The notes beneath the pieces are model-generated. The model made no database searches, had not been told where the DNA came from, and saw only the letters and a list, made by a program, of their open reading frames with translations. From Escherichia coli (lineage in GTDB: Bacteria > Pseudomonadota > Gammaproteobacteria > Enterobacterales > Enterobacteriaceae), in assembly GCF_003334405.1 (NCBI RefSeq), contig NZ_QOWM01000032.1: a stretch of DNA of 5,842 nucleotides. One strand, written 5' to 3'. Positions 3,851 through 4,255 of the stretch are shown one piece after another; within the stretch, counting starts at the first letter, position 1, and every line of letters starts with the position of its first letter. Made by a program: the position numbers and the translations under genes.

Positions 3851-4255
3851 ATGGCTTTATCACCCAAAGAAAAGAAAGAGTTACAACAACGCTTCGAAAA
3901 GCAATTACTACCTGACCTTGATATGTCATTTGAACTAAATGGCGAAGTATATAAATTTAATTTTGATAAAAATGAGTCAGGTGACTATATCGATAGTTTT
4001 ACACAAGCAGTATGGGGAGGTTATCAGGATGCCGAGGAATGGGAAAAATATGGTAAACATCAGGAGACAGAATTACCTGAATACCCTGAACCAGTCGAGG
4101 GTTGGTGCGACTGTGATAAATGTAAGTCGATGATTTTTCATAAAGAGAAAAATATTTATGTTTGCCTCTCCTGCCATAAACAAACAGAGCCATTTCTTCC
4201 AATTGACTGGAACTCAAACGATTACGATTGGCTACCTTATGAAGATGAATACTAA
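3851..4255 (+). CDS. Acidic zinc-ribbon protein, function unknown (candidate anti-restriction / DNA-mimic-type factor)
   Basis: 134-aa ORF. RBS AGAGG at 3841-3845, 5 nt before ATG 3851. Strongly acidic (D+E well in excess of K+R by eye). CxCx2C ... Cx2C cluster (CDCDKC ... CLSC) typical of a zinc ribbon. Acidic/aromatic C-terminal tail DWNSNDYDWLPYEDEY. Low GC. Confidence 0.6.
   Translation: MALSPKEKKELQQRFEKQLLPDLDMSFELNGEVYKFNFDKNESGDYIDSFTQAVWGGYQDAEEWEKYGKHQETELPEYPEPVEGWCDCDKCKSMIFHKEKNIYVCLSCHKQTEPFLPIDWNSNDYDWLPYEDEY

Follow-up and report, generated by a model that had tools for sequence, protein, structure and literature searches.

The 134-codon open reading frame at positions 3851-4255 of an Escherichia coli plasmid sequence encodes an uncharacterized protein of a very narrow plasmid family, in which a generic zinc ribbon goes together with an interesting, if circumstantial, gene order beside a type IA DNA topoisomerase gene, topB. 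We find that the gene is an accessory, often lost element and not a part of the plasmid backbone, and the data support a non-catalytic, modular docking protein. On neighborhood evidence, we rank first, tentatively and with well under even confidence, the reading that this protein is a non-essential adaptor in a topB-centered DNA-processing/establishment block. Among the main carriers of mcr-1 and other resistance genes are IncX4 and related plasmids, much of whose gene content outside transfer has no explanation.

The window, i.e., the whole 5842-bp stretch that was analyzed, is IncX4 conjugative-plasmid DNA. The queried stretch is 100% identical to CP073616.1 and NZ_CP070012.1, two E. coli plasmids typed IncX4, MOBP, and MPF_T, and the coding sequence of the 134-aa protein is identical in both. 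All genes of the window lie on the + strand, in the order taxB, the Cag12-family lipoprotein gene (cag12), trbM, two small hypotheticals, nuc, the 134-aa gene, a 70-aa ORF, a 191/195-aa hypothetical, and topB; hha and hns follow downstream of topB in the full plasmid. The features on which the analysis draws are:

7-1824, + strand: taxB/virD4 coupling protein
2530..4571, no strand assigned: 2.04-kb accessory segment with hyp85, hyp144, nuc, the 134-aa gene, and the 70-aa ORF, absent from pHNSHP23
3320..3835, + strand: nuc, secreted thermonuclease of the SNase family (NCBIfam NucI/EcnA matches; “thermonuclease family protein” in RefSeq)
3842..3845, + strand: Shine-Dalgarno-like GAGG, 5 nt before the ATG of the 134-aa gene, read from the sequence
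3851..4255, + strand: coding sequence of the 134-aa acidic zinc-ribbon protein (= WP_001218544.1), ATG start, stop codon included
4560..5147, + strand: 191/195-aa hypothetical protein, next to topB on its upstream side
5152..5842, + strand: 5′ part of topB (type IA DNA topoisomerase/Topo III), start MRLFIAEKP..., annotated so in NZ_CP070012.1, running off the window

The nuc gene is directly upstream of the 134-aa gene, with a gap of 15 nt. Co-transcription of the 134-aa gene with the genes upstream is plausible, because no promoter-like or terminator-like site was found between trbM and the 134-aa gene. The 191/195-aa protein at 4560-5147 has no match in Pfam; it fills the slot that DUF6012 occupies in other IncX-like plasmids, and we rejected its assignment to DUF6012, to which it is not homologous despite this position.

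Several properties of the sequence argue that 3851-4255 is a real gene under selection and reject a chance ORF. Given the base composition, the probability that 134 codons after a given start contain no stop by chance is ~1e-4, and homologues in other plasmids share 34-83% identity, with the cysteines invariant. The dN/dS ratio is well under 1 in all measurable pairs: it is 0.52 for the closest homologue pair and 0.13-0.30 at larger distances, passing from 0.52 through 0.23 to 0.13 as distance grows. The intact allele is present at at least 99% identity in 198 plasmid records from six genera.

The earlier note had described, by eye, a small and strongly negative protein with a CxCx2C ... Cx2C zinc-ribbon-like motif and a tail rich in D/E/W/Y, and all of these observations are borne out. 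The 134-aa protein has a pI of 4.42 and a net charge of -16 (30 D+E versus 14 K+R), with 21 aromatic residues and 5 Cys, the latter spaced C86-x-C88-x2-C91 ... C105-x2-C108 (codons at 4106-4108, 4112-4114, 4121-4123, 4163-4165, and 4172-4174). Its C-terminal 16 residues, DWNSNDYDWLPYEDEY, include 11 that are D, E, W, or Y. The description of the surroundings as AT-rich cargo stands in part: the GC content of the gene is 36.5%, versus 40.5% for the window (40.3% for taxB), but the carrier is an accessory indel of the IncX4 backbone and no transposon. That no known family could be recognized by eye agrees with scans of the protein and its homologues against Pfam, NCBIfam, PHROG, and PADLOC, which gave sub-threshold zinc-ribbon matches only.

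The protein divides into two modules and a tail:

3851..4081, + strand: acidic N module, residues 1-77, motif FE...DKxxxGxYIDxxTQxxWxG (alignment and AF2 model)
4082..4204, + strand: Z module, residues 78-118, zinc ribbon, (C/Y)PEPxxGWCDCxKC...YVCLxCHKxTEPFLPI
4205..4252, + strand: C-terminal tail, residues 119-134, DWNSNDYDWLPYEDEY, predicted to be disordered

An AF2 model based on 17 diverse sequences has a mean pLDDT of 77. For the N module, it predicts a helix at residues 5-22, a beta-hairpin at 26-35, and a second helix at 49-66, with pLDDT values of 75-92 over residues 1-70 and down to 62 for 71-80. Strands are predicted in the Z module at residues 94-97, 102-105, and 111-114. In the tail, the block means are 49 and 39, and pLDDT falls below 50 at residues 128-134.

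The Z module is the most conserved part of the family, in which it follows the pattern CPEPxxGxCxC...YVCLxCHKxTEP...D[WF]LP. Among 17 homologues, P79, P81, G84, C86, C88, H97, Y103, V104, C105, L106, C108, K110, E113, and P114 are invariant, and this invariance of the core holds down to 34% identity. The arrangement C88-x2-C91-x13-C105-x2-C108 is that of a zinc ribbon, with two CxxC-type knuckles and predicted hairpin strands between them, and C88, C91, C105, and C108 are probably the canonical zinc ligands. Two relatives, P0025 and P0036, lack C91 and keep C86 and C88; C86 may be the alternative ligand in such proteins, and the ligand set would then be somewhat plastic. The N-terminal zinc ribbon of AccD (Zn_ribbon_ACC, PF17848; PDB 2f9i_B) shares the CxxC-x13-CxxC spacing and the beta-hairpin between the knuckles. 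However, the 134-aa protein has no carboxyltransferase domain, and AccD is without the upstream CPEPxxGxC element and the conserved HKxTEP...D[WF]LP extension of the family. The matches to AccD are weak, all far under the family thresholds (NCBIfam accD, E 0.0034; Pfam, E 0.11; PDB 2f9i_B, E 0.6), and the Foldseek neighbors outside the family are TFIIB-type ribbons.

The window allele is of the N-Z type, with Y78 versus a near-invariant Cys in the family and with a two-residue DY insertion in the tail relative to its relatives. Other members combine the parts differently. The N module occurs alone, as ORFs of 56-71 aa, in many Salmonella plasmids. An optional C module (WIKQEEAELGENAFYHPN...) is joined after Z in P0027-type proteins (Z+C), forms a separate ORF in L011, and follows the gene as a frameshifted remnant in L003. 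In P0036, residues 1-43 of DUF6012 are joined to Z (Pfam E 9.5e-12). The N and Z modules are both shuffled as units, and the architectures are N alone, N-Z, Z-C, and DUF6012(N-terminal)-Z.

When 5.8e9 proteins were searched by a word index, homologues turned up on plasmids only, in E. coli, Salmonella, Klebsiella, Enterobacter, Citrobacter, and Dickeya. Among 1.84e9 cluster representatives, searched exhaustively with a profile, 21 matches had E <= 1e-3, about ten of them true relatives and the others fragments or repeat proteins; the true clusters all come from Enterobacterales plasmids. The carriers of the gene are a few hundred enterobacterial conjugative plasmids, where it usually sits beside nuc and topoisomerase III genes. 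We found no phage homologue in 50,697 records (tblastn) and no catalytic domain with Pfam or NCBIfam. A PDB sequence search with two profiles gave the AccD and RpoM ribbons only (E >= 0.6), a fold-library search gave a generic zinc ribbon at most, and no protein with an established, unrelated function emerged as a clear homologue. Literature searches for WP_001218544.1 or its label yielded nothing relevant, and the IncX reviews and studies do not discuss the 134-aa ORF.

The label in question is “exodeoxyribonuclease V subunit beta”, which many GenBank and UniProt entries give to this protein; RefSeq now has “hypothetical protein” for WP_001218544.1. RecB itself is about 1180 aa long and combines UvrD-type helicase domains with a PD-(D/E)XK nuclease domain. 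We reject identity with RecB, as the protein has 134 aa only and matches no helicase, nuclease, or recB model (Pfam/NCBIfam, E <= 0.01-10). Judged by these comparisons, the label is a spurious, propagated misannotation; the analysis removes a misleading name and shows the gene to be accessory. Databases also hold truncated, internally deleted, or fused alleles (P0010-P0023), including a fusion of nuc and the 134-aa gene (P0023).

In the prototype mcr-1 IncX4 plasmid pHNSHP23 (NZ_MF774184.1), only positions 1-2529 and 4572-5842 of the window align (blastn), with 325 bp in place of 2530-4571, so that nuc and the 134-aa gene are both missing. In PLSDB, the adjacent IncX4 flank is found in 1032 records and the 134-aa gene in 269, about a quarter, and the gene is thus not a member of the IncX4 core backbone. 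Conjugation of pHNSHP23 is efficient, and a saturating Tn5 mutagenesis has located the transfer genes of this plasmid (PMC8725589). Because a conjugation-proficient plasmid lacks the gene and only about a quarter of the flank records carry it, IncX4 plasmids do not need the gene for replication, for maintenance, or for transfer from one E. coli strain to another. The transposon screen itself has no direct bearing on the gene, since the plasmid used there does not have it. We also considered cds4 and cds16, IncX4 genes of unknown function from that screen (PMC8725589), as possible names for the 134-aa gene and rejected both, as their primer arms map elsewhere (L006 11434-11781 and 6060-6374).

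We compared twelve distinct plasmid contexts with family members. A type IA topoisomerase gene (topB) lies at most four genes from the family member in nine of the twelve: IncX4, the IncX4-like L022, the IncX-like L016 and L005, L007, the pil-type L010 and L003, L004/L017-20, and the IncX1-like L024/25. In L024/25, the ORF of a lone N module shares an ATGA with the start of topB (L024 6177-6180) and has a Shine-Dalgarno, AGGAG, within its 3′ end. In L007, P0036 (DUF6012N-Z) stops one base before the topB ATG (8363/8364). A zinc-ribbon/TopB fusion or read-through in L007, suggested by a tblastn alignment that ran past the stop, proved spurious, as the sequence has a normal TopB N-terminus. There is no topB within 5-8 kb in three contexts (L011/12, L021, and the Dickeya L013), and the majority of IncX plasmids with topB, among them the mcr-1 IncX4 lineage, are without the 134-aa protein.

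Other neighbors recur as well. The SNase gene (nuc) is directly upstream in four contexts (IncX4, L022, L021, and L005) and nearby in three more; in L016, one small ORF separates it from the family member, and within 4-8 kb it is absent in L003, L004/L017, L007, and L010. Downstream, hha or hns is found in several contexts. The slot beside the family gene is variable: it holds DUF6012, an unrelated ~200-aa family (L010/L011/L017), or the IncX4 191-aa protein, and elsewhere an AAA/nSTAND3 ATPase (L022) or a 2388-aa Eco57I-like/helicase protein (L011/L021). In the Dickeya plasmids, a Lar-family gene is directly upstream of the family member (TIGR03655, 45.3 bits versus a cut-off of 39.6).

If the adaptor reading is right, the product would be a cytoplasmic, two-module protein encoded in an accessory block that, on Enterobacterales plasmids of the IncX-like and IncI2-like kinds, separates the transfer genes from topB-hha-hns. 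It would act by protein-protein (or protein-ssDNA) docking, with neither catalysis nor DNA mimicry invoked. The N module would partner the plasmid Topo III (TopB) or a process served by TopB, e.g., the handling of single-stranded or catenated plasmid DNA in transfer and replication. The zinc ribbon and the DWLP peptide would form an additional element for docking to another partner, with ssDNA, SSB, the ~200-aa neighbor, and a host protein as candidates. Topoisomerase C-terminal ribbons (Zn_ribbon_Top1, PF01396) and Topo III partners such as SSB offer a parallel in their zinc-ribbon chemistry and type IA topoisomerase linkage, but the 134-aa protein has no profile match to PF01396. Some observations speak against such an adaptor. 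Gene neighborhood is its sole link to TopB, which common descent of the block could explain instead of function; topB is an IncX backbone gene, so every gene of the region is near topB; and the contexts lacking topB, as well as the topB-bearing plasmids lacking the protein, do not fit an adaptor for TopB easily. The dN/dS of 0.52 and the truncated or fused alleles would suit an accessory gene that is decaying or of the conflict type no less than they suit a housekeeping cofactor.

A conflict-type role could be that of an establishment or anti-defence factor, which would bind and inhibit a host immunity or SOS-type protein, without DNA mimicry, and whose expression would follow transfer into the new host. 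We rank this reading second and consider it possible but improbable as it stands. The protein is small, acidic, an orphan, modular, fast-evolving, and plasmid-borne, all of which would suit such a factor, and the variable hotspot beside its gene also takes defence-like cargo, namely the ATPase of L022 and the 2388-aa protein of L011/L021. In the Dickeya plasmids, the gene immediately preceding the family member is a true restriction-alleviation gene of the Lar family. The Lar family (TIGR03655/PF14354) consists of small zinc-ribbon-type proteins of mobile elements, but the 134-aa protein matches no Lar model and has another length and architecture. It likewise resembles no family or fold known from anti-restriction, anti-CRISPR, or SOS-inhibitor proteins, and the search for anti-restriction or anti-CRISPR folds that the earlier note had proposed was negative. 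The phage records hold no homologue, and the most successful IncX4 lineage does without the gene.

The position of the gene relative to oriT points in two directions. Anti-defence genes are enriched within ~28-30 ORFs of oriT, across oriT from the relaxase and transcribed towards oriT, and the relaxase operon enters last as a general rule (PMC11541004). Our placement of oriT upstream of taxA/ddp1 is by inference, and the relaxase operon was assumed to enter last; it weighs against an anti-defence role that oriT and the transfer direction are both of this kind. In IncX4, the 134-aa gene is transcribed towards the inferred oriT, but it lies ~15 kb away, around ORF 22 of 41, a position at which the term “leading region” has hardly any meaning. 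In the IncI2-like plasmid NZ_CP016011.1, the family gene is ~7 kb, or about ORF 10, from the inferred oriT, opposite the relaxase and transcribed towards oriT, with ssb two genes downstream on the inferred leading side. This position near ssb and oriT matches the published arrangement (PMC11541004) and lends modest support to an establishment role.

The idea that the protein is acidic and hence a DNA mimic, raised by the earlier note together with a likeness of the tail to the C-terminus of SSB, loses ground when the family is considered as a whole. Homologues without a dubious N-terminal extension have a pI of 4.3-5.4 and a net charge of -5 to -18, a spread that made the check for DNA-mimic charge patterning, as run on sequences, negative, and strong acidity is a feature of the allele and not of the family. 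In the tail, the only element conserved among the 17 homologues is the D-[WF]-[LF]-P core (D126-P129). The family's C-terminal ends differ (...YEDEY, ...DDDDEY, ...DKFEC, ...DWLP, ...ENAL, ...EIKGQK, or an extra domain); P0042 ends in ...DWLP, without an acidic run, and P0026 in ...DWLPENAL. Since strong acidity and the acidic tail end are not conserved, both analogies are disfavored. The acidic/aromatic C-terminal peptide bears a superficial resemblance to the SSB tip, but the DWLP motif is internal in most relatives, and an SSB-like acidic end is not kept among the homologues. An ArdA/Ocr-type mimic, whose negative surface would imitate B-DNA and titrate restriction enzymes or RecBCD, would suit the pI and net charge of the window allele and its location on a plasmid, and the RecB-type label could be taken as a hint of RecBCD, but one without detectable homology. 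Like ArdA and Ocr, the protein is small, acidic, encoded by a mobile element, and without an enzymatic domain. However, no similarity in sequence or fold to ArdA (PF07275), Ocr, or another solved mimic was found. The protein is far less charged (12% net negative), its zinc-ribbon segment is net positive, the conserved positions are Cys, His, Pro, and aromatic residues of the zinc-ribbon core with no acidic arrays, and its gene does not adjoin oriT in IncX4. We regard such a mimic as highly unlikely.

Two further explanations start from the neighboring nuclease gene and from the damaged alleles. Nuc has a pI of 9.5 and a signal peptide, and a small acidic protein of the cytoplasm whose gene directly follows that of a basic, secreted nuclease recalls barstar, NuiA, and the colicin immunity proteins; the 134-aa protein could accordingly be a cytoplasmic inhibitor, immunity protein, or chaperone for Nuc. 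The two genes are adjacent, or one small ORF apart in L016, on IncX-like and pil-type backbones, and they were lost together in pHNSHP23. However, no homology to these inhibitors was found, and the pairing with nuc is not obligatory either way: four contexts have no SNase in the vicinity, and a megablast search with 3320-4600 (nuc, the 134-aa gene, and 345 nt downstream) hit 912 PLSDB records, only 47 of them covering at least 80%, versus 269 with the 134-aa gene, which suggests that many plasmids have a nuc-like gene but no 134-aa gene. The module shuffling (Z-C, DUF6012N-Z, N alone) also ill suits a single tight inhibitor fold, and no inhibitor is known for SNase-family plasmid nucleases. 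We consider a Nuc inhibitor unlikely. Quite unlikely, too, is that the gene has little or no current function and is what decay has left of a once larger N-Z-C protein, carried along passively in the accessory segment. The many truncated, internally deleted, and fused alleles, the frameshifted C module of L003, the deletion of the whole 2-kb segment in the mcr-1 lineage, the dN/dS of the closest pair, and Y78 at a nearly invariant Cys position would all agree with decay. On the other side are the low dN/dS throughout, above all at larger distances, the zinc ligands and core residues that are invariant at 34% identity, and the wide distribution of the intact allele across 198 records and six genera.

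Returning to the adaptor reading, we replace “acidic, hence DNA mimic” by a testable idea, that of a zinc-ribbon adaptor built of modules, with genetic ties to the nuc-topB-hha-hns block. A broader proposal, which we hold to be doubtful, is that the N and Zn-ribbon/DWLP modules are unrecognized small partners of plasmid topoisomerase III, or a new protein-binding anti-defence/establishment family, with the Zn ribbon as a portable docking domain recombined onto different effectors. Should either the topoisomerase III-partner or the anti-defence reading be true, the modules would tune the processing of incoming or replicating plasmid DNA in Enterobacterales. A partner, once found (TopB, SSB, Nuc, or a host defence protein), would make this a small addition to plasmid establishment biology; without one, the 134-aa gene would be one of many dispensable plasmid orphans. 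As a separate observation on the same segment, the 70-aa ORF downstream of the 134-aa gene encodes a hydrophobic product and is unannotated.

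Comparison with the epidemic mcr-1 IncX4 prototype pHNSHP23 (NZ_MF774184.1) identifies the entire 2.04 kb at window 2530-4571 as an indel. It holds two small hypotheticals, nuc, the target gene for the acidic zinc-ribbon protein and a 70-aa ORF. As pHNSHP23 carries 325 unrelated bp in place of this segment, IncX4 plasmids therefore come in two forms, nuc-plus and nuc-minus. Three of the other genes in the segment are as follows.

2550-2807, + strand: 85-aa hypothetical, partial match to a VirB11 model
3320-3835, + strand: nuc, a GC-rich island
4316-4528, + strand: 70-aa ORF, very hydrophobic, 26.8% GC

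Residues 1-28 of the 85-aa hypothetical match NCBIfam TIGR02788, the VirB11 model, over its positions 227-252 with an E of 5.6e-5, and the gene may be the remnant of a virB11 fragment. The GC content of nuc is 48.4%, versus 35-37% in the genes on either side; its product has a signal-peptide-like sequence at the N-terminus, and the gene overlaps the ORF before it by 4 bp (3320-3323). The 70-aa ORF follows a strong Shine-Dalgarno sequence (AAGGAGG, 4304-4310) and is left unannotated in the RefSeq record of the matching IncX4 plasmid NZ_CP070012.1. No family match was found for this ORF, whose product may be a small protein of the membrane or a peptide resembling a toxin.

Degraded alleles are common in the zinc-ribbon family (protein entries P0011, P0014 and P0023; plasmid locus L003 4326-4485) and include internal deletions; P0023 is a nuc::zinc-ribbon fusion, and in the Salmonella plasmid L003 (4326-4485) the C module lies frameshifted 3' of the zinc-ribbon gene. 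The window allele has Y78 (4082-4084) in place of a near-invariant Cys, turning CPEP into YPEP, and a two-residue DY insertion in its tail (D124-Y125, 4220-4225) that duplicates the tail's D-aromatic pattern. The label "exodeoxyribonuclease V subunit beta", for which we could detect no basis in this 130-aa family, has spread through its GenBank and UniProt entries (P0001-P0015, P0042, P0043, P0045 and P0046; UniProt A0AAW7F9B3 and others).

In IncX1-like Salmonella plasmids, the N module stands alone as a 59-aa protein (L024 6001-6180) whose ATGA overlap with topB (L024 6177-8510) couples the two translationally. A PcfJ-domain gene precedes this module, an order also seen in locus L011.

The slot directly 5' of topB or directly 3' of the zinc-ribbon gene differs in its occupant among plasmids, being filled by three mutually unrelated, uncharacterised proteins of ~190-215 aa. 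One is the 191-aa protein of IncX4, another is DUF6012, and the remaining one belongs to a family with the sequence MRYCxMPxWxQRxxRDMKVGDT...

Slot genes in the window and in other plasmid loci
Window 4560-5147 (+)
L005 5168-5764
L016 8645-9232
L010 8360-8986
L011 8641-9285
L017 3802-4386

Defence-like cargo adjoins the block holding the zinc-ribbon gene in some plasmids, which suggests that the neighbouring region is a hotspot for variable genes. This cargo comprises a 420-aa AAA/nSTAND3-like ATPase between the zinc-ribbon and 191-aa genes (IncX4-like L022, 5555-6817) and a 2388-aa Eco57I-like methylase/SNF2-helicase protein (L011 and L012, 9701-16585, - strand; L021, 7530-10399, - strand).
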